The notes: a model not told the origin generated them from the letters alone. A DNA stretch of 26,455 nucleotides from a virus (IMGVR_UViG_3300029582_000347:1-26455), one strand, 5' to 3'. Positions 2,254-24,386 are shown, numbered from the stretch's first letter. Translations and numbers: made by a program.

Positions 2254-2345
2254 GGGAGAAAATGGGACTGGGAGGATGAAGGATAAGCGACTGTATCCAC
2301 CTTGAATCTTGATTCCGTTTCCTTGAACCAGTAAACTTCAACCGC

Positions 2346-2861
2346 AGGAAAAAGAAAGCATCACCTACAACCAAAAGAAAACCGGGGAGGCCGAGCCTCT
2401 ACACCGAGGATTTAGCCCAGGAAATAGCCGTCCGGCTAGCCAATGGCGAAACCATGAAAGCCATCTGCGCCGACGCTCACATGCCGGACGTCTGGACCGT
2501 CTGGCACTGGCGGGAAACCAGGCCGGAGTTTTCCCAACTTATTCAATGCGCGCGGGAAGCGCAGTCGGAAGCCATGCTTGACGCCTGTCAGGAGCTGGCC
2601 GACGAGGCCGCGAAAGTCGCCCTCGACCCGGAATGCGGCTCCGCCGCCGTCGCCGCAAAAAAGCTGGCCATTGAAACGCGGCTGAAAGTCGCCGCCCGAT
2701 TCGCGCCGGAAAAATTCGGCGACCGGGTCCGTCAGGATGTCGCCGGCGTTCCCGGAGCGCCGCTGGAACGGAAAATCACCCTGGACCCCGATCAGCTGGC
2801 CCAGCTGCAGGAAGACGAGAAAACCGCGCTGGAAACCATCGCCGGCAAACTCCAAGCTTAA
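2346..2861 (+). CDS. terS: Terminase small subunit (N-terminal HTH type)
   Basis: KRKPGRPSLYTEDLAQEIAVRLANGETMKAICADAHMPDVWTVWHW...FAPEKFGDRV matches the common GRPSKYTPE...IC...MP...W...KYGD small-terminase pattern. The first canonical start (ATG 2454) falls inside the HTH. There is no ATG/GTG/TTG in frame between the stop at 2310 and 2454. The start given here is the in-frame AGG at 2346 and is a hypothesis. Confidence 0.8.
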   Translation, partial: RKKKASPTTKRKPGRPSLYTEDLAQEIAVRLANGETMKAICADAHMPDVWTVWHWRETRPEFSQLIQCAREAQSEAMLDACQELADEAAKVALDPECGSAAVAAKKLAIETRLKVAARFAPEKFGDRVRQDVAGVPGAPLERKITLDPDQLAQLQEDEKTALETIAGKLQA

Positions 2862-2867
2862 CAGACC

Positions 2868-4241
2868 AGGACACGCCTCCCCGTCAGCTTCTTCCTCCGC
2901 CATGTCCTCCGCCTGGATCCCTATCCCTGGCAGGTGGAGGCCATCAAGGCGTTGTCCCTCGGAAAGCTGACCCTGGGAGGGAAAAGCGTGGCTCTGGTCG
3001 CCCCCAACGGATCCGGCAAGACGAGCAACTGCATCGCTCCGGCCATCCTGTACTTCCTCACCTGCTTCCCGAAGGGCCAGGTGCCAGTCACGTCGTCGTC
3101 GTGGATGCAGGTGGAAAAGCAGCTCTTTCCCGCGCTCCGCCGCTACATGGACAATCCCTTCTTTGACGGCTGGACCTTCAACAAAACCGAAATCCGCACG
3201 CCGGAGGGAGGCTTTGCCGTGGGCTTCTCGACCGACAACGCCGGCCGCGCGGAAGGATGGCACCCGAAAATCTCGCCCGACGTGGACCCCGTCTTTTATG
3301 TTCTTGACGAGGCCAAAACCATCCCGGACTCCATCTTCACCGCCGTTTCCCGCTGCACGCTCTTCCACGCGTTCATCACCTCGTCGCCGGGGGCCGATTC
3401 CGGCACCTTCTACGACTGCTTCCACAAAAATTCATCTCTCTACTACAAAATCCGCGTCAAATACGAGGATTGTCCCCACATTGAGATCAACGACCCGGGC
3501 AAGGCCGAACGCCTGAAAAAAGAATACGGCGAACAGTCCTCCTTCTACCGCTCCGCCATCCTCGGCGAATTCACCGACCTCGACGGTCAGTCCGTCATTC
3601 CCCGGCGCGCCCTCATGGAGCTGGTCAACAACCCGCCTCCCTTTCTGGACACCGGGGAGACCTGCGGCGGCTTCGACTTCGCGGCCGGAGGCGACGAAAA
3701 CGTCTTCGCGGCCGGGCAGGGCAACCGATTCTTTATAGCCGACCACTGGTCGGACCCGGACACCGTAGGAGCGCGCGGACGGTTCCGCCGCCGGGCGTCC
3801 GAACTCGGCATCCCCGCCGACCGCATTTACGCGGACGGAGACGGCCTTGGACTACCCATCATTGACGACTTCCGCGCCGAGGGCTTCCCGGTGCACTCCT
3901 ACCGGGGCGGCTTCCCGGCTGACGACACTCAAGCCTTTGTCAACCTCCGCGCCCAGGCGTGGCGGGCCCTGGCACGCGCCATCGAAGAAAAGGAACTCAT
4001 CCTCGACATTGACGAGGACACGATTGAACAGCTGGTAGCGCCCCGGCTTCAAACCGACGCGATCGGCCGCGTCAAAATCGAAAGCAAGGAAGACATGGCG
4101 AAACGGGGCGTCCGTTCTCCCGACCGCGCCGACGCCCTCGTCATGGCCTGGCACGCGCGCCGGCACAGCGGACTGGCCCGGACGCTGGGAGCTTGGTACT
4201 CGCGTCCCGTGTCATCCAAACGCGCCATCGGGAGATATTAG
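2868..4241 (+). CDS. terL: Terminase large subunit
   Basis: Walker A VAPNGSGKT and Walker B FYVLDEA. Nuclease-domain acidic motifs ADGDGLG and SPDRADAL. The track start is GTG 2934, but the conserved LDPYPWQ lies upstream of it. The start given here is the in-frame AGG at 2868, which is the only shared candidate start. Confidence 0.9.
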   Translation, partial: RTRLPVSFFLRHVLRLDPYPWQVEAIKALSLGKLTLGGKSVALVAPNGSGKTSNCIAPAILYFLTCFPKGQVPVTSSSWMQVEKQLFPALRRYMDNPFFDGWTFNKTEIRTPEGGFAVGFSTDNAGRAEGWHPKISPDVDPVFYVLDEAKTIPDSIFTAVSRCTLFHAFITSSPGADSGTFYDCFHKNSSLYYKIRVKYEDCPHIEINDPGKAERLKKEYGEQSSFYRSAILGEFTDLDGQSVIPRRALMELVNNPPPFLDTGETCGGFDFAAGGDENVFAAGQGNRFFIADHWSDPDTVGARGRFRRRASELGIPADRIYADGDGLGLPIIDDFRAEGFPVHSYRGGFPADDTQAFVNLRAQAWRALARAIEEKELILDIDEDTIEQLVAPRLQTDAIGRVKIESKEDMAKRGVRSPDRADALVMAWHARRHSGLARTLGAWYSRPVSSKRAIGRY

Positions 4242-4243
4242 GG

Positions 4244-4272
4244 TTGACAATATATCAATATATCCGTATATG
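4244..4272 (+). promoter_or_regulatory. Sigma70-like promoter for the phage tRNA
   Basis: TTGACA (4244-4249), a 17-nt AT-rich spacer, then TATATG (4267-4272). The -10 ends 17 nt before the tRNA 5' end. The candidate host tRNA-Cys promoter has the same geometry. Confidence 0.4.
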
Positions 4273-4288
4273 AAGATATGTAATCAAT

Positions 4289-4362
4289 CGCAGGGTGGTG
4301 AAACGGTATCACGCGGGGTTCCTGTCCCCGAGTAGGAGGTCCAATTCCTCCCCCTGTAACCA
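4289..4362 (+). tRNA. Phage-encoded tRNA, anticodon CCU (formally Arg/AGG) with initiator-tRNA-like features
   Basis: Hand-folded 74-nt cloverleaf: CGCAGGG TG GTGA AACGGTA TCAC G CGGGG TTCCTGT CCCCG AGTA GGAGG TCCAATT CCTCC CCCTGTA A CCA. All stems pair fully except C1xA72 and G2-U71. The CCA is encoded. Confidence 0.85.
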
Positions 4363-4385: not shown

Positions 4386-5750
4386 AGGTTCAACGCATTA
4401 AAAAATATCCTCAACGCCCCGAAGCTAGTCGCCCAACAGGAGACCAGAATCAAGGAGCTGGAGACGGATCTCGCCCGGCGAGCCCTGACGGAACAAAGCC
4501 GGCAGCCCAACCGTCCCCAATGGTACGAATACTGGGACCCGTTACAGGGAGCCGACTTGAGCACTCTTGTGGAGGCCCGGAATGAAGCCCGGCGGGGAGC
4601 CTTTGCCCGGCAAATGCTGATCTGGGATGAAATCATTTATTCGGACGGGCTGCTGGGCATGCTCTACTCCCGCTTGATCGAAAGCGTCGCCATGCAGGGC
4701 TGGAAGATTGACGCCGCGGACGAAAGTCCGGAGGCCCAGCGCCAGAAAACCGCCCTGGAAGAATTCTACCACTCCGTCAACGGGCTGCAGCAGTCTTTTG
4801 GACAGCTGGCTTCCGCCATGTTCTACGGTTACGCCCATCTCCAATACATCGAGGATTCCTGGGGCCGCCGATTTGAATTCATCCCGCAGCGTTATTGGGT
4901 GCGGCCGGGAGAGTTGAATCAATGGCAGTTCAACCCCCAGTGCTATATCGGGGTCGATACTGGCGAAAGCGTGGAAGAAGAAACGCTCGTCGTGATGGAG
5001 CACCGGTATCCCATCCTGTTCCCCGCCGCCCGCGCCTCCTTTGAGCGCAACCACGCAAAGATAACGTGGGACAACCACATGGACCGCTACGGGAGCGCCC
5101 CGGTCATCATCACCGCCCCCAAGGACGCGAGCGCCGCCGTCATGGACGCGCTGGAACGGGCCTGCGAACAGCTTAAATCAGGCGCCTCCATCGTGCTGCC
5201 TCCTGACTGTAAGGCGGAACCGCTCAAGGCGTCCAACATCAACGAAAACTATTTTCTCTCGCGCATCAACATGGCCGACAAGGACCAGGTGCGTTTTGTG
5301 ATGGCCGGAACCCTGACCGTCCTAAACGAATCAGGATCCGGCACGCTAGCCGGGTCCGCCCATACGGACAGCTGGAACGCGGTGGTGTCCGCCGTCTGCT
5401 CCAAAGTGGCGGAAGCGTTCAACACCGCCATCAGCCCGCTTATATTGGAAGACGGCGAACCGCTGGCCCGCCTCCACATCACCTTTGACACTGTCCAGAC
5501 GCCATTGCAGAAGGCCGAGGAAATCGCCGCCCTTGCGGACGGAGGCGTCCGTCCGGAGAAAACGGAAATCGAAGAAAAGATCGGCATGTCGATCGAGGAT
5601 TCGAGGGAGCCCGTGCCGACGGCGGCGGCAGCCAACAGGGAGTCGGGAGACTCCCTCATTCCGCCCGACGCCTACGAACAGCTGCAGCAGATGATTTACG
5701 CCGGCCTCATGAAAGGATTTAACGATGATCAGTACCAGACAAATCAATGA
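4386..5750 (+). CDS. Portal protein (Mu gp29 / DUF935-like)
   Basis: Lies downstream of terL with appropriate size. It carries the DUF935-like core LLGMLYSRLIESVAMQGWKI...AMFYGYAHLQYIE. The track start is TTG 4557, but the frame stays open and protein-like back to the tRNA. The start given here is the in-frame AGG at 4386. Confidence 0.7.
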   Translation, partial: RFNALKNILNAPKLVAQQETRIKELETDLARRALTEQSRQPNRPQWYEYWDPLQGADLSTLVEARNEARRGAFARQMLIWDEIIYSDGLLGMLYSRLIESVAMQGWKIDAADESPEAQRQKTALEEFYHSVNGLQQSFGQLASAMFYGYAHLQYIEDSWGRRFEFIPQRYWVRPGELNQWQFNPQCYIGVDTGESVEEETLVVMEHRYPILFPAARASFERNHAKITWDNHMDRYGSAPVIITAPKDASAAVMDALERACEQLKSGASIVLPPDCKAEPLKASNINENYFLSRINMADKDQVRFVMAGTLTVLNESGSGTLAGSAHTDSWNAVVSAVCSKVAEAFNTAISPLILEDGEPLARLHITFDTVQTPLQKAEEIAALADGGVRPEKTEIEEKIGMSIEDSREPVPTAAAANRESGDSLIPPDAYEQLQQMIYAGLMKGFNDDQYQTNQ

Positions 5751-11556: not shown

Positions 11557-12207
11557 AGGGCTACTACATACGACCCCACTTTTAGCAACCGCAACGTGAC
11601 GCCGCAGATTACCGGCGTTCTGGCTATTTTCCTTCCCGACGGGATCAAGGTGACCGAGGACGAGGGAGCTTCTTACGTCACCGGGCCGGACCAGTTTCCG
11701 ACGCCTCCGACATCTCCGCCGACGGATCCGACCGCCGGGCCCGAAGCGCCCTGGGTGAGCTTCGGGCTGCTGGGCGCGTTCCAGTCCGTCGCCACGCAAG
11801 TCGAAGGAGAAGTGACGCGCTTTTACGGCGGCGCGCTGGGCTACCGCCAGCAGCGCAAGAACACGACGACCGGCAAGCGCCTGACCTTTACCACGCCGGA
11901 CATGTCCCCCGAATGGTTCCAGCTGTCTTTCGCTCTGGGAGCGCCTCCCGCCAATGGAGAGGAATCGACCACCGTCGGACATGGCGGCGACAACAAGATT
12001 GAGGGGTATCTTCACTTCTGGTACCAGAACGACGTCGGCACGATCTATCTGGTCGGAACGGCGCATGGCGCGTTGCGCCTCCTTCAGGATCCGGAACATA
12101 CCACGGCGATCGCTTCGCCCCAGTTCGAGTTCGAGATGGATTACCGCGGCAAGTACCAGTTCACGCCTTCCAATGTGCAGGACGTGACGCCGACGCCGGG
12201 TTCCTGA
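11557..12207 (+). CDS. Putative major tail protein
   Basis: About 216-aa ORF after the head-tail joining genes, followed by a hairpin terminator, which is typical for a highly expressed major structural gene. The track start is GTG 11596. The start given here is the in-frame AGG at 11557, giving MATTYDPTFSN. Confidence 0.45.
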   Translation, partial: RATTYDPTFSNRNVTPQITGVLAIFLPDGIKVTEDEGASYVTGPDQFPTPPTSPPTDPTAGPEAPWVSFGLLGAFQSVATQVEGEVTRFYGGALGYRQQRKNTTTGKRLTFTTPDMSPEWFQLSFALGAPPANGEESTTVGHGGDNKIEGYLHFWYQNDVGTIYLVGTAHGALRLLQDPEHTTAIASPQFEFEMDYRGKYQFTPSNVQDVTPTPGS

Positions 12208-12219
12208 CGTGTTTCACCA

Positions 12220-12254
12220 GGGGGCGGATGACGCCCCCGCATCCTTGTTTTTTT
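12220..12254 (+). terminator. Rho-independent-type terminator/attenuator after the major tail gene
   Basis: GGGGGCG (12220-12226), loop GATGA, CGCCCCC (12232-12238), then GCATCCTTG and T7 (12248-12254). The U-tract sits 9 nt from the stem, so this is only moderately canonical. Confidence 0.5.
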
Positions 12255-12255
12255 C

Positions 12256-14259
12256 AGGCAGCAGGCAGGCAAATATGATATCAGGACCGTCACGGGGCTG
12301 AACCAGTCCCTGGTCGTCCGCGTCGTGGATTTCCAGGGTGACCCCGTCGATATGAGCGGCGTCACCCTGCGCGGAGCCGTCCGCCTCAAGACGGGCGTGA
12401 CGGAGTTCGGCTTTTCTCGAGACGACGAGGGCAACGGCGTGATTTCCTGGGAGTCGGTGCCTGCGGGCATGTGGTCCTATGACGTCTTCATGGACGACGG
12501 CAGCGAAGAAAGCCCCCTTCTCTACGGTTGCTTTGTTTCTTCGGGCCGGGTAACGCCGGACTTGCCCGGCGAGCAGCAGGCCGTGGCGGGCGCGGTCGTC
12601 GTGCAGCTGCCGGAAGGAAGCGGCTGCGTGCAGGTAGTGCTTGATAATGCGTCCAGCGCCGCCTGGTACGCGGAACAGGCCAAGAAGTACGCGGAGAATT
12701 TTAGCCTGTCCGTTGACGAAGTCACCACCGGGGAACCGGGGACGGCCGCCGCTGCGGAAGCCGTCAAAGGGGAGGCTGCAGGCTCCTATAAGCTCTCCTT
12801 CACCATTCCCCGGGGGGATGTCGGTCCCGAAGGGCCGGCAGGCCCGCAGGGAGAACGGGGCGAAACCGGACCCGAAGGGCCTCAGGGCCCCCGCGGCGAA
12901 ACCGGGGAACGGGGGCCGCAGGGCGAAACGGGAGAGCAGGGCCCGAAGGGAGATCCGGGCCCGGCCGGACCGCAAGGTCCCGAAGGCCCGCAGGGGCCGG
13001 AAGGTCCGGTGGGGCCCCAGGGCCCTCAAGGGGAAAAGGGAGATCCTGGTACTCTGACATCCAACGTTGGCGATGTGAATATCGGGGGAGCCCTGACCGC
13101 GGAGTCAGCTACCGTGAACGGGCCTCTGGTGGTCAACAACCCGGACGGCAGCGGAAGCGTCGGCACGCTGAATCAGATTTACGGGATCACCCGGTTTTAC
13201 CAGTCGGTCGATCTTCGGTCGGGCGGATGGCTGAGAGGGACATTCATGGTAGAGACTGGAATCCTGAATATCAGCCAGGGCGCCAGCTTCAACTGCGCGG
13301 GGACATCCACGTTTTCAAGCGCCCTCAACGCCAATGGAGGCGTCAACATCCCGTTGGCCGTGGGTGCGCCGACCGATACGTCAGCGGTCAATCGCCTGTA
13401 TGCCTCGGGCATGGGAGGCGCAGCCAATGCTTATACGGCGGCGGCTTTCCTGAATACGGACACGCTGACAACTACCGGCACGGCAACGGTGACTAAAACG
13501 GTTCCCTACCAGATGGCCCGCATAGGCATTCCCGCGGGCGCTCACACGACTATTCAGGCCCCCTTTGAAGGCCCCAGTTCCCAATGGAATTATTCTTCCT
13601 GGGCCGGCTTTTCGTTTGTCTGGCGGGCCACGGCCGCAGCGAAGATAACGATGGGCATCGGACGGGGAGCGAAAACAATCAGGGCGGACCTTACCACCGA
13701 CTCCTACACGATTATTCCTGGCAATGACCTGGCATTTAATTCCGGGGAGATTCTGGACATCACCTTTGACAACGTGCGCGATACAACGCGCAACGGATAT
13801 ACGGTGCGGGTGCGGGAAATTTATGCGCTGACGTCCGCCGATGGATGGCAGGTCAAGACGACGACCAGCTTTATCCCGGCGACGCAGAACGAGCCCGTCC
13901 CGTGGACGGTGTGCAAGATTATTTACCAGCAGCAGACGGTTGCCAACAGCAGCGTTTATGAAAACCTGGGAGGCCTCTGGCTGCTGGTCACGGGGGCACA
14001 GACCAACAACCTGTTCAAGATCGCCACCTGCCGGGGCGTCTCCAATTTTGAGACCGGCGTCGGCATTTCCAGATGGGTGACGGATGTGATCAACACCACC
14101 AGCGGCACGGCTTCCGTTTATGCAGGGCCCGGGGAATATGCCTATTACCAGCCGGGCAATGTGAACCCCCTCTTTTACGGGTTGGACGCGATAGGAACGA
14201 ATGCCATTGAATCCGAGGCAACCGCCGCTTTTGAAGATATTAACGTACCAATAGAATGA
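12256..14259 (+). CDS. Tail fibre protein with collagen-like triple-helix repeat
   Basis: 26 uninterrupted G-X-Y triplets, an N-terminal Ig/BppU_N-like segment ([30 protein letters not shown]) and a long C-terminal beta-rich region. The track start is GTG 12325. In-frame AGGs occur at 12256 (used here) and 12283. Confidence 0.8.
12814..13050 (+). repeat. Collagen-like (G-X-Y)26 coding repeat
   Basis: [18 protein letters not shown] ... GEK GDP G, read directly from frame 1. Confidence 0.95.
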
Positions 14260-15269: not shown

Positions 15270-15800
15270 ATGAAAATAGCCATTGATATTGGCCATGCCA
15301 ACAACACCGGATCCCGCGGGAACGGTCTTGAAGAACACGCCGTCGCCGTGACGATCGCCGAACGCCTTGCCCCCATGCTTCAGAAACTGGGCCCCAAGGT
15401 GGACGTGATTGACTTTCCTGGCATGAGCAATGCCCAGGATTTGAACGCCACCATCAAGGCCGCCAATGAAGGCGGCTATGACTTCGGCATCTCCCTTCAT
15501 TGCGACGCGTCAGACAATCCCCAGGCCCACGGCGCCCATGTGTGTTTTTACCCGGGCAGCGTCAAGGGCAGCAGGCTGGCCATATGCATCGCGGAACCTC
15601 TTTCCCGCCTGCTTCCCGGCCGGGCCAATACCGTGCAGTCGCGTCCGGGCCTCGCCGTCCTGAAAAGGACCCGCTGCCCGTGGGTGCTGTGCGAATGCGG
15701 CTTTATCACCAATCCTGAAAACGCCGCCCTGATGAAGGACCATCCCGGACGCATTGCCGAAGCCATTGCCGAAGGGGTGAAGGACTACCTCAACCAGTAA
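15270..15800 (+). CDS. N-acetylmuramoyl-L-alanine amidase (Amidase_3 family endolysin)
   Basis: IAIDIGHANNTGS...EH...ISLHCDA...GAHVCFY...VLCECGFITNPE matches the Amidase_3 zinc-ligand and fold pattern. AAAGGAGA RBS lies 7 nt upstream of the ATG. Confidence 0.9.
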   Translation: MKIAIDIGHANNTGSRGNGLEEHAVAVTIAERLAPMLQKLGPKVDVIDFPGMSNAQDLNATIKAANEGGYDFGISLHCDASDNPQAHGAHVCFYPGSVKGSRLAICIAEPLSRLLPGRANTVQSRPGLAVLKRTRCPWVLCECGFITNPENAALMKDHPGRIAEAIAEGVKDYLNQ

Positions 15801-19918: not shown

Positions 19919-22090
19919 AGGAACCACGACATCACCATCAATGACTTGCTGGCCCTCAAGCCGTCGAGCCTGACCCACGACCAGCAAAGCTTTTCCGTCT
20001 CCACCATCACCGCGGTTTATCCCGTGCGAACGCTGGGGGAGGTCTTGCCCTTCCAACAGTTCGATACTGTCGCCATCTCCCAAAACGGGAACACCATTCT
20101 TTCCGGCCTCGTTTCCAGCATCGAAAAGGCCTACAGCGGCTCATCCCGTGCGTGGAAAATCGTCTTTTCCGATCCCTGGTATTGGCTGGACAACTGCTTT
20201 GCGCTGGATTCCGAATGGAAGCCGGTCTTCTCCATGTGGAATAAAGTCAGCGGAGGGGGCGGCATCATTCCGAAGATAAGCATTTCCTCCGCGCTCTCCC
20301 GGGTGCTGAACCTCGCCAAACACCACCCGGCGGACTACGAGCTGCGTATCAGCGACGACAAGATGCTGATTCCGTGGAACGCCTCCTGCGATACGCTGGG
20401 CAGCCTCCTTCAATCCATCCGCCGCTGGTCGCCCCGGATGGTCTCGTACTACGACTACAGCGGAGCGCGCCCCAAGCTCATCATCACGGACTATGACGCC
20501 CTGACGCCCATTGCGCTTCCCTTGCAGCCGACGGAAACGGTCAAGTCCATGGACGTCTCCCTGATCCCCCGGGGCGACCTCGTTCCGCCCTGCGTGGCTA
20601 TCGTCGCGGAAACGACCGGCAGCAACGGCTACCGCGTCTCCTACCTGTCCAAATACCCGGAAGACGGGGACCCGACCTTGCCGCACTCCATTGTTTACCG
20701 AACGTCAGTAGACTTCTACTACTCCAAATACAGTTCTACGGGGGAGCCGGTAGAAGATCCGCAGCCGGTGCAGGGCACCAGGGCCGGCAGCCTGTCTTAC
20801 CAGCGCATGAAAGTGACGGGGACCAGGATTGACCAGAACGACATGATCAACAGTTTCTGGAAAAATCATTTCCCGTGGATGAAAGATGTAGGAGCAATCG
20901 CCGTCTATGACCAGGATCCGACCATCACCGGGAAGCCCTGGGACGGAACGGAGGAAGACAAGCCGCGAGGCTACAACACCGCCGCCACAGGCTATGAACT
21001 GACGGACGGGCAAATTCATACCAAATCCATCCGCCCGCAATGGTGCAATGCCACTATCAAGCAGCGTCTCGCCATCCCGGAAAGCGCCCCTGCCAAGTGG
21101 CGGGAGAAATTCAAGAATGTGGGGACCTTGCAGGGTGTGCCCTGCTTTTGGGAAGAATTCTCGGTAGATCTGGTCACCATGGACCGCCCCTTTGCGAGCT
21201 ACCCCATCGACGGCATCTACAACGGGGAGCAGCCCTCCAACGGGCCGGAAGAAGGGGAATCGCCGGAACCGTCGGAAGGTGTGCCCTATGGGGACATTGC
21301 AAAAACGGTGTGGGAATCCATGCAGGAATTGCCCTGGGACGGCTCTATTTCCTTTGTCGCGCTGGGGGATGCTCAAACGCGGCAATACATGGGCCGCCGC
21401 GTCTCGCTGCTGGGAGGGAACCCCGCATGGCAGAATATCAACACCATGATCCAGACGGTGAACCGCGACCTGCAGACCAACGTCATTACGTTATCCTACG
21501 GCGCGCCGGAACAACTGGGAATTGAAGAATGGGTAGAATTGAAGCGCGTGAATGCCACATCACGCAGATCCTCCACGCTGGAAAACATGCAGGGCGCGCC
21601 GGAATCGACGGAATACGCCTTTGACCCCAAGCCGGAATCCCCCACCATCAGCCAGCATATTACCAAGTCCACCGGGGAAGCCACGCCCGCGCCGGAATAC
21701 GGCTTCCAGGTGCGGGTACAGAAAGATACGGAGGGAGCCGTCACCGGGGCGCAAATCAAGCCCGGCGCGCTCTACCTGAACGGGAATCTGCTCGGCAAAT
21801 ACCCGCAGGGGGGCAGTTCCGGTTCCTCGTGGGTGCAGCTCACCCAAACCAGCGGGGAAGTATGGCTCAACGTCCACTTTGACCAGGACGCCAAATTGAC
21901 GGGCGTTGACGTCTCCGGCATTCCGGGGACGGTGTACCCAATCAGGCTTGCCGGAGAAAAACCGGGCGTCAACTTCGACTATTCCTTCCTGATTGCCGAC
22001 ATCGAAGATGACCAGGTGACGCAATACGCCCTGGGCATGATTCAGATTCCGGTCTTCGGAGGAACCTTCTACCCCTACGGACCAGCATAA
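19919..22090 (+). CDS. Tail tip / distal tail (host-specificity) protein
   Basis: About 723-aa ORF after the tape measure. The track start is TTG 19946. The start given here is the in-frame AGG at 19919, giving MNHDITINDLLALKPSSL. The family is not recognised; the call is by size and position. Confidence 0.5.
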   Translation, partial: RNHDITINDLLALKPSSLTHDQQSFSVSTITAVYPVRTLGEVLPFQQFDTVAISQNGNTILSGLVSSIEKAYSGSSRAWKIVFSDPWYWLDNCFALDSEWKPVFSMWNKVSGGGGIIPKISISSALSRVLNLAKHHPADYELRISDDKMLIPWNASCDTLGSLLQSIRRWSPRMVSYYDYSGARPKLIITDYDALTPIALPLQPTETVKSMDVSLIPRGDLVPPCVAIVAETTGSNGYRVSYLSKYPEDGDPTLPHSIVYRTSVDFYYSKYSSTGEPVEDPQPVQGTRAGSLSYQRMKVTGTRIDQNDMINSFWKNHFPWMKDVGAIAVYDQDPTITGKPWDGTEEDKPRGYNTAATGYELTDGQIHTKSIRPQWCNATIKQRLAIPESAPAKWREKFKNVGTLQGVPCFWEEFSVDLVTMDRPFASYPIDGIYNGEQPSNGPEEGESPEPSEGVPYGDIAKTVWESMQELPWDGSISFVALGDAQTRQYMGRRVSLLGGNPAWQNINTMIQTVNRDLQTNVITLSYGAPEQLGIEEWVELKRVNATSRRSSTLENMQGAPESTEYAFDPKPESPTISQHITKSTGEATPAPEYGFQVRVQKDTEGAVTGAQIKPGALYLNGNLLGKYPQGGSSGSSWVQLTQTSGEVWLNVHFDQDAKLTGVDVSGIPGTVYPIRLAGEKPGVNFDYSFLIADIEDDQVTQYALGMIQIPVFGGTFYPYGPA

Positions 22091-24212: not shown

Positions 24213-24288
24213 TGGCATCGCGTACGGGACTCGAACCCGTGTTGCCCGCGTGAAAGGCGGGAGTCCTGGACCGCTAGACGAACGCGAC
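24213..24288 (-). tRNA. tRNA-Glu (anticodon UUC)
   Basis: Reverse complement is GTCGCGTTCGTCTAGCGGTCCAGGACTCCCGCCTTTCACGCGGGCAACACGGGTTCGAGTCCCGTACGCGATGCCA. Canonical cloverleaf, anticodon loop CTTTCAC, close to E. coli tRNA-Glu. Confidence 0.95.
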
Positions 24289-24311
24289 TTGAACCGGCTT
24301 TGACAACATCT

Positions 24312-24386
24312 TGGAGGCGGGAGCGGGAATCGAACCCGCGAATAACGATTTTGCAGACCGTCGCCTTACCACTTGGCTACCCCGCC
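24312..24386 (-). tRNA. tRNA-Cys (anticodon GCA)
   Basis: Reverse complement is GGCGGGGTAGCCAAGTGGTAAGGCGACGGTCTGCAAAATCGTTATTCGCGGGTTCGATTCCCGCTCCCGCCTCCA. Anticodon loop CTGCAAA. U73 discriminator is typical of tRNA-Cys. Confidence 0.95.

Follow-up and report, generated by a model that had tools for sequence, protein, structure and literature searches.

A probable AGG start codon for the small terminase gene of an Akkermansia prophage and the phage-encoded initiator-type tRNA(CCU) that would read it

At which codon does the small terminase gene (terS) of an Akkermansia prophage start? The prophage was analysed in IMGVR_UViG_3300029582_000347:1-26455, a stretch of 26,455 nt referred to here as the window, of which bases 2255–3299 are 95.6% identical to Akkermansia phage DTMo-2021a. 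Gene callers start terS at ATG 2454, but an initial annotation of the window had claimed that this codon would truncate the helix-turn-helix (HTH) domain of the protein and that the best initiator was AGG 2346. Having compared the window with dozens of related contigs, which come from independent assemblies of different samples (labelled L006, L011, L015, L057, etc.), we consider it likely that terS starts at AGG 2346, not at ATG 2454, and that a phage tRNA with the anticodon CCU and an initiator-type acceptor stem (tRNA(CCU), positions 4289–4362) reads AGG as a start codon. The terS locus comprises the following features.

2346..2861, plus strand: terS, Sf6-type small terminase, 171 amino acids (aa) counted from AGG, identified by PF20901, PHROG 1482, and homology to Sf6 gp1
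2346..2348, plus strand: proposed terS start codon AGG, invariant, with no canonical start between it and the conserved HTH
2346..2453, plus strand: Lys-rich N-terminal arm and first part of the HTH, KRKPGRPSLYTEDLAQEIAVRLANGET, the segment flagged in the initial annotation; under purifying selection and homologous to the N-terminus of Sf6 gp1
2454..2456, plus strand: internal ATG (Met37), the start chosen by gene callers, which gives 135-aa products

The frame upstream of ATG 2454 is as it had been described: the 47 codons of 2313–2453, after the TGA at 2310–2312, read exactly FRFLEPVNFNRRKKKASPTTKRKPGRPSLYTEDLAQEIAVRLANGET; ATG, GTG, TTG, CTG, ATT, ATC, and ATA are all absent from the frame before an ATA at 2424; and the AGG at 2346 stands within CGC-AGG-AAA. 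Profile alignment, proposed in the initial annotation as a check, showed that both PF20901 and PHROG 1482 cover the segment upstream of M2454. With the translation taken from upstream of M2454, the PF20901 (Sf6_terminase) alignment opened at profile position 1, at nucleotide 2400, and covered profile positions 1–105 of 106 (E = 2.6e-27; 95.4 bits against a cut-off of 27), and the PHROG 1482 match was concordant with it on the N-terminal extent. M2454 lies 18 codons within this Sf6-type terminase domain, and a start there therefore cuts the domain, dropping profile positions 1–19. In addition, residues 8–141 of the AGG-initiated TerS aligned with residues 5–131 of Sf6 gp1, a protein of solved structure (3HEF; E = 2.3e-16), and the equivalent of Met37 is a Leu in Sf6 gp1 and in distant homologues. 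All three alignments uphold the truncation that had been claimed for ATG 2454. Homologues starting at the equivalent of M2454 would have argued the other way, but distant homologues whose genes have ordinary ATG starts open with a tail rich in Lys and then KRKPGRPSLYT. The gene is also placed as a small terminase gene should be, with the large terminase gene (terL; phrog_2) 6 nt after its stop codon.

The frame stays open in all 36 distinct terS 5′ regions, which derive from independent assemblies. Among these regions, 74% of the codon differences between GRPS and the internal Met were synonymous, compared with 51% in the next 50 codons, and the variable sites in the GRPS-to-Met segment were distributed over the three codon positions as 12/5/22. 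This synonymous excess and third-position variation indicate that the upstream segment is translated and under purifying selection. The relatives conserve S/N-R-R-K-K-K...KRKPGRPSLY in an open frame without a canonical start, and the sole invariant feature at the 5′ edge of terS is the AGG followed by AAA-AAx, with in-frame stops 1–3 codons before the AGG in many lineages. Because the same layout recurs across dozens of independent assemblies, the sequencing indel that the initial annotation had entertained is excluded. Its choice of AGG 2346 as the best initiator was borne out by the invariance of this codon in all related lineages, the nearby in-frame stops upstream, and a promoter just 5′ of it. 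The NCBI annotation uses an ATA start for terS in one lineage. An upstream ATG of the type found in L006, which yields a 186-aa terS call, was rejected as the start; it is located upstream of or inside the conserved promoter and is therefore probably absent from the mRNA.

The promoter consists of two elements.

2309..2314, plus strand: TTGATT, the −35-like hexamer of the promoter for terS (late operon), which includes the in-frame TGA at 2310–2312
2332..2337, plus strand: −10-like hexamer TAAACT, which ends 8 nt before AGG 2346

Of the 23 distinct upstream contexts compared, 22 showed TTGAYW, a spacer of 17–18 nt, and TAnnnT at a fixed distance to the AGG, and the spacer sequences were unrelated among lineages. 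The distance from the −10 element to the AGG was 8 nt in 15 contexts, 6 nt in five, and 9 nt in two. The predicted transcription start would lie at approximately 2344–2346, and because the conserved promoter ends 6–9 nt before the AGG, the terS mRNA is probably leaderless or carries a leader of about 2 nt. Leaderless initiation is not confined to AUG, as GUG can also serve. The review PMC9031893 describes it for an AUG that lies at the 5′ end of the mRNA or close to it; the geometry of the terS promoter resembles this arrangement in that it predicts a 5′ end at the start codon or about 2 nt before it, but the terS mRNA would open with AGG. Conservation is higher over the 120 nt that precede the coding region of terS than within the coding sequence itself, and homology to phage DTMo-2021a opens abruptly at about 2263, right after a DnaC-like gene. 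In other lineages, a ATCAAGAACAAACAA block is present upstream of the −35 element and is possibly a late-activator binding site.

A survey of all open reading frames (ORFs) in the window identified further late genes whose conserved N-termini precede any canonical start. Including terS, seven late genes in the window start with AGG (terS, terL, portal, major head, g11557, tail fibre, and g19919), and 17 confident phage genes start with ATG. The six additional AGG-start genes, and an endolysin gene that bears on them, are as follows.

2868..4241, plus strand: terL, 457 aa, with its AGG two codons past the terS stop; callers use GTG 2934 (435 aa)
4386..5750, plus strand: portal gene (Mu-type), 454 aa, AGG start; callers give 378–484 aa
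7325..8248, plus strand: major head protein gene, 307 aa, AGG start
11557..12207, plus strand: g11557, late gene with no function assigned, 216 aa, AGG start
12256..14259, plus strand: collagen-repeat tail fibre gene, 667 aa, AGG start
19919..22090, plus strand: g19919, large late protein gene, 723 aa, AGG start
15270..15800, plus strand: Amidase_3 endolysin gene, ATG start in the window, Pfam domain from residue 3

The start AGG was conserved in each gene to a degree that the internal AGG codons were not. The terL AGG was found in 18 of 20 contexts, with L015 carrying an ATG at the same codon and L011 an ATG one codon off. The portal AGG was present in all 23 contexts (71 loci); upstream of it the sequence is unrelated among lineages, and the 57 codons downstream of it show conservation with synonymous changes and share no canonical start. 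The major head AGG occurred in 47 of 48 loci, and the exception, L057, has an ATG at exactly that codon. For g11557, the AGG was found in 17 of 17 contexts, and the 13 codons ahead of the first GTG are conserved with synonymous changes. The tail-fibre AGG was retained in 11 of 11 contexts, the frame being broken among lineages by poly-T indels just upstream, and the g19919 AGG in all 13 contexts (24 loci), where in-frame stops precede it by 5–8 codons. In the endolysin gene, eight related loci have AGG at the ATG codon of the window, with the AGGAG Shine–Dalgarno site unchanged. Thus, ATG and AGG are exchanged at an identical codon in three genes (terL, major head, and endolysin). When six start AGGs were tested, all were 100% retained in 18–43 aligned loci, whereas only one of 13 internal AGG controls was fully retained (mean retention, 33%; Fisher's p about 3e-4 against the six starts). 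With g19919 included, seven AGG starts were invariant, and in a scan of 120 AGG triplets, these seven starts were the only fully retained in-frame ones.

The family N-termini of Sf6 gp1, phrog_113, and phrog_1005 coincide with the AGG positions, in support of AGG starts: phrog_113 positions 27–437 correspond to residues 27–428 of the portal protein and phrog_1005 positions 14–273 to residues 13–263 of the major head protein, both numbered from the AGG. Entry of ribosomes into these frames from upstream is impossible because of the upstream stops in terS, the frame-breaking indels before 12256, and the unrelated sequence before the portal gene. Several other AGG triplets were considered and discarded. 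AGG 10303, 10393, and 12283 are CGG or GGG in relatives (12283, the next AGG in the tail-fibre gene, is CGG in most of them), and AGG 22060, like 21 other AGG triplets with full retention, lies within a real gene but out of its frame. The AGGs are also not Shine–Dalgarno elements, there being no start codon at a suitable distance downstream.

A Shine–Dalgarno-like motif was detected in just two of the 23 genes examined (5725 and 15270), and initiation here is therefore largely Shine–Dalgarno-independent. Many starts in the window are preceded by A/C-rich stretches, such as TAACCAT. A four-base CAGG:CCUG pairing via G37 was unsupported, the nucleotide at −1 being C in six of seven AGG starts and nine of 16 ATG starts (p = 0.35). 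The ATG start of the DnaC-like gene (1462) is ATA in 12 related loci from three contexts in an ungapped extraction, which may reflect an alignment offset or a rare ATA start. The tail-fibre AGG 12256 lies directly 3′ of a GC-rich segment and a T7 run (12232–12255), which looks like an intrinsic terminator and in which the length of the T run varies among lineages.

The candidate reader of these AGG codons is encoded between terL and the portal gene.

4289..4362, plus strand: tRNA with the anticodon CCU and an initiator-type acceptor stem (C1xA72, A73, C3:G70), CCA encoded, detected with ARAGORN and Rfam
4244..4272, plus strand: promoter-like element for tRNA(CCU) (TTGACA, 17 nt, TATATG), conserved in eight distinct upstream contexts; a promoter function is presumed

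The tRNA gene lay between terL and the portal gene in all 15 loci first fetched, and it accompanied AGG starts in every locus examined. We collected 72 copies with 16 sequence variants, and the anticodon was CCU in all 72. The acceptor stem reads CGCAGGG/CCCUG(C/U)A-A-CCA, compared with CGCGGGG/CCCCGCA-A-CCA in Escherichia coli tRNAfMet (a sequence checked in 5,426 genomes). In all 18 distinct sequences, position 1:72 was C.A, and the 20 other stem pairs of the cloverleaf were 100% paired, nine of them with compensatory changes; none of 500 shuffles matched these pairing and covariation values. The formylation determinants A73 and C3:G70 were invariant, and G2:C71 was present in 15 of 16 variants (16 of 18 distinct sequences), the window copy having G2.U71. 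In the anticodon stem (29–31:39–41), 13 of 16 variants had three G:C pairs, and G30:C40 was invariant. ARAGORN also drew an unpaired top pair for E. coli tRNAfMet, whereas the Glu and Cys tRNAs in the window were drawn with full seven-pair stems. The phage tRNA was 67–69% identical to E. coli tRNAfMet, compared with 47–57% to these two elongators.

The tRNA(CCU) is thus neither of the two familiar types. Use by EF-Tu requires a paired 1:72 position, and the invariant C.A mismatch does not agree with an elongator tRNA-Arg(CCU); conversely, the CCU anticodon does not agree with tRNAfMet, which has CAU and is charged with Met and formylated. Its features point to a tRNA that is initiator-like in function but is not tRNAfMet, and that may be formylated. 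AGG makes up 9.7% of the internal Arg codons and is entirely absent from the interior of terL, so an extra elongator tRNA for this codon would be of little use. The stretch from the TTGACA to the tRNA gene holds direct repeats of ATATCAA(C/T)ATATC (4250–4285); relatives conserve them, and they may act as an operator for tRNA expression. The tRNA-Glu(UUC) and tRNA-Cys(GCA) genes, with ordinary seven-pair acceptor stems, lie on the minus strand at 24213–24386, at the right end of the phage region; the pair also flanks several related loci, and its site is probably a host junction or attachment region.

A pattern specific for tRNA(CCU) matched 29 viral contigs, many of them from this Akkermansia phage group, and only one Akkermansia genome among 185,579 species-representative genomes. 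A pattern for a canonical acceptor with a non-CAU anticodon gave no matches in viral contigs and 43 in metagenomes, of which 29 were not tRNAs. Two of the matches were otherwise canonical tRNAfMet genes in which CAU was changed to CCU (L114, 608–684) or CGU (L117, minus strand, approximately 596–669); these could be real variants, mutations, or sequencing errors. Twelve metagenomic tRNAs had the acceptor CGCGGGx...xCCCGCA-A-CCA with C1xA72, GGG/CCC in the anticodon stem, and the anticodon CUG (L102, L104, L127, L131, L135, L141, and L144) or CUC (L116, L123, L126, L128, and L142). They were 64–77% identical to the Akkermansia phage tRNA, and in the contigs examined they were situated just downstream of replication-initiator genes in small elements. 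L102, the one CUG contig tested, also encodes a rolling-circle Rep-like protein and a Zot-like protein, which suggests that the carriers are inovirus-like elements.

Several observations weigh against an AGG-reading initiator tRNA. In three of 16 variants, a U.G or A:U pair replaces one G:C pair of the anticodon stem. All variants have U11:A24, in place of the A11:U24 characteristic of bacterial initiators. Every variant has U at position 20 (D loop AACGNUA), and A20 is a major determinant for arginyl-tRNA synthetase (ArgRS) in E. coli; because this determinant is absent, the amino acid carried by the tRNA is uncertain, even though the Arg-type C35 and U36 are present. The T loop is the unusual UCCAAYU, with C55 instead of the usual U55 (and U56 in one variant), and position 19 of the D loop varies freely (G, C, A, or T). 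As a result of these two features, the G19:C56 and G18:U55 tertiary contacts are not conserved, and the elbow of the tRNA looks relaxed. A stricter consensus promoter scan of the window did not call the terS promoter, the call resting on a looser comparative criterion. Furthermore, in a quick comparative look at the elements carrying CUG or CUC tRNAs, the corresponding CAG or GAG starts were not found, and an acceptor stem of this type may therefore do something else in mobile elements. Finally, all of the evidence is computational.

Of the alternatives, the most serious is that AGG is read weakly by the host tRNAfMet as a near-cognate codon, with tRNA(CCU) being an elongator for a rare Arg codon. 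AGG is one position away from AUG, bacteria do initiate weakly at near-cognate codons, and the U11:A24 pair of the tRNA is elongator-like, as its C35 and U36 are Arg-type. However, weak initiation is difficult to reconcile with the large amounts of major head and portal protein that a phage needs, and an elongator with the retention of the 1:72 mismatch in 18 of 18 sequences while every other pair was maintained by compensation. In E. coli, this mismatch prevents use in elongation. G72G73 data on the initiator tRNA are given in PMC2268962. The rarity of internal AGG, its absence from within terL, and the constant association of the tRNA with AGG starts also argue against an elongator role, and we regard this explanation as improbable. 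It is considerably less probable still that ATG 2454 is the true terS start, with the upstream 108 nt being a 5′ untranslated region or what is left of a decayed N-terminus and an incomplete HTH sufficing for the protein to work. This ATG is invariant in the clade as well as preferred by gene callers, but the segment upstream of it is under stronger purifying selection than the next 50 codons and can be aligned with both the N-terminus of Sf6 gp1 and positions 1–19 of the Pfam profile; moreover, six other genes show the same anomaly and lack any conserved internal start codon.

Recoding into the terS frame, whether by a frameshift or hop on an A-rich tract or by TGA read-through from ATG 2250, is very unlikely. 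The A-rich tracts AGGAAAAAGAAA do resemble slippery sites, ATG 2250 overlaps the stop of the upstream gene (ATGA), and both intervening stops are TGA. A frameshift or hop was nevertheless rejected, given that no start codon is present in any frame at 2335–2350, that each frame is stopped just upstream, and that the promoter lies immediately upstream of the AGG. Read-through was rejected likewise: relatives have TAG or TAA directly before the AGG and unrelated upstream DNA that is often divergently transcribed, and the upstream DnaC-like gene itself ends in TGA. As for a mistake in sequencing or assembly, or the decay of the prophage having left a pseudogene, one window alone could not exclude an indel; but with the same layout in dozens of independent assemblies as well as in the deposited phage DTMo-2021a, and with the sequence under purifying selection, this explanation has a negligible probability. 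Initiation at AGG by the phage tRNA(CCU) therefore remains the reading that we prefer.

The feasibility of an AGG-reading initiator is supported by engineered initiator tRNAs. Changes in the anticodon of tRNAfMet shift initiation to the complementary codon, whether initiation occurs de novo or as re-initiation; such initiators depend on the 1:72 mismatch to be formylated and on the G:C pairs to bind the P site, and the new anticodon also sets the new amino acid (PMC2268962). The same paper cites the use of an engineered initiator on a leaderless archaeal mRNA. The E. coli tRNAfMet anticodon mutants of the RajBhandary laboratory (CUA, which reads UAG, and GAC, which reads GUC) and later orthogonal initiators (PMC2268962, PMC11744186) share with tRNA(CCU) an initiator-type body with a non-CAU anticodon that makes the complementary codon a start. 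Unlike these laboratory constructs, tRNA(CCU) is a natural gene conserved in a phage lineage together with seven or more natural AGG-start genes, and its D stem (U11:A24) and T loop differ from those of tRNAfMet. In the literature searched, the AGG/CCU pair was not found among the engineered cases, and the only precedents for a non-CAU initiator tRNA were engineered, with no natural one found.

The nearest natural analogue is the recoding of stop codons by suppressor tRNAs in gut phages (PMC10879173, PMC11210395). There, too, a phage tRNA alters the meaning of a codon for the phage genes while the host code is standard, and those genes are untranslatable without the tRNA; however, a stop codon is reassigned in elongation in that case, whereas a sense codon would be used as a start at initiation here. 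The ORFs of the window are intact under translation table 11, with no in-frame stops, which does not indicate a suppressor-tRNA alternative code, and the only phage-internal tRNA in the window reads AGG. Near-cognate initiation (at GUG, UUG, AUU, etc.) likewise involves a non-AUG start codon, but tRNAfMet(CAU) reads such codons by mismatch, whereas a dedicated tRNA with a fully complementary anticodon is available here. In comparison with Sf6 gp1 (PDB 3HEF, 4DYC; PF20901), which was made at the level of protein sequence, TerS is homologous over residues 8–141, including the N-terminal GRPS...HTH, and the Akkermansia gene differs in having AGG at the start position and an internal Met where Sf6 has Leu.

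In the mechanism that we propose, tRNA(CCU) would pair with AGG in the ribosomal P site, so that AGG serves as the start codon, and in some relatives the endolysin gene would use an AGG start as well. terL would probably be reached by re-initiation 6 nt past the terS stop. Because Shine–Dalgarno motifs are so few, codon–anticodon pairing would carry most of the start-site specificity. By analogy with the engineered initiators, the initiating residue would be Arg, though this is uncertain. The virion genes would be untranslatable unless the phage tRNA is made, and we infer that this could act as a translational lock on the late genes.

The tRNA gene was also associated with a satellite or PICI-like (phage-inducible chromosomal island-like) element, found at 5406–14459 in L098, 4627–13680 in L099, and 5357–14429 in L096 and L097. 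Its gene content is an integrase gene, a homologue of the phage terS (about 60% identity), small ORFs, and genes for a Toprim primase, a protein of 568 aa, and an ERCC4 protein. The L098 and L099 copies lie within the prophage, inserted immediately 3′ of the CCA of the phage tRNA(CCU) gene; they bring a full-length tRNA(CCU) of their own, complete with its TTGACA promoter, and their terS homologue starts with AGG. The L096 and L097 copies adjoin a host tRNA-Tyr gene, and no CCU tRNA was found in the fetched region; the terS homologue of these two loci has only an AGG (TCC-AGC-AGG-AAA), with no canonical start before the HTH, and may therefore depend on the tRNA of a helper phage. An Akkermansia metagenome-assembled genome (CANQLV010000011.1; L101, 250–760) contains a clustered regularly interspaced short palindromic repeat (CRISPR) array of eight repeats, GTTTCAATCCACGCACTCGTGAGAGTGCGAC, and one of its spacers is identical to nucleotides 8–41 of the phage tRNA(CCU). 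The host therefore targets the tRNA gene, which implies that it has no identical gene of its own. The wider picture, in which an orthogonal start code with a translational lock and possibly Arg-initiated proteins is exploited by a satellite and its tRNA gene is targeted by CRISPR, with the CUG and CUC tRNAs hinting at a wider trait, is an attractive but tentative one that we would at present sooner doubt than assert.

To our knowledge, natural initiation always relies on one initiator tRNA, which has the anticodon CAU, and non-AUG starts reflect mismatched reading by that same tRNA. An AGG-reading phage initiator tRNA would thus be categorically new as a natural phenomenon, with the caveat that the case for it has been built computationally. 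If confirmed, a natural second initiator tRNA would constitute the first reassignment of a start codon and the initiation-side counterpart of the stop-codon recoding of gut phages, and it would provide synthetic biology with a naturally evolved orthogonal pair of initiator tRNA and start codon. Whether proteins are naturally initiated with an amino acid other than Met becomes a testable question, with defined genes and a defined tRNA; Akkermansia phage DTMo-2021a has a deposited genome, the record of which gives A. muciniphila NBRC 114322 as the host. For the abundant Akkermansia prophages of the human gut, the AGG starts mean that gene callers systematically truncate or mis-start key structural genes (terS, terL, and portal), and the system as a whole suggests a novel type of control over late genes, as well as a novel type of dependency between phage and satellite.

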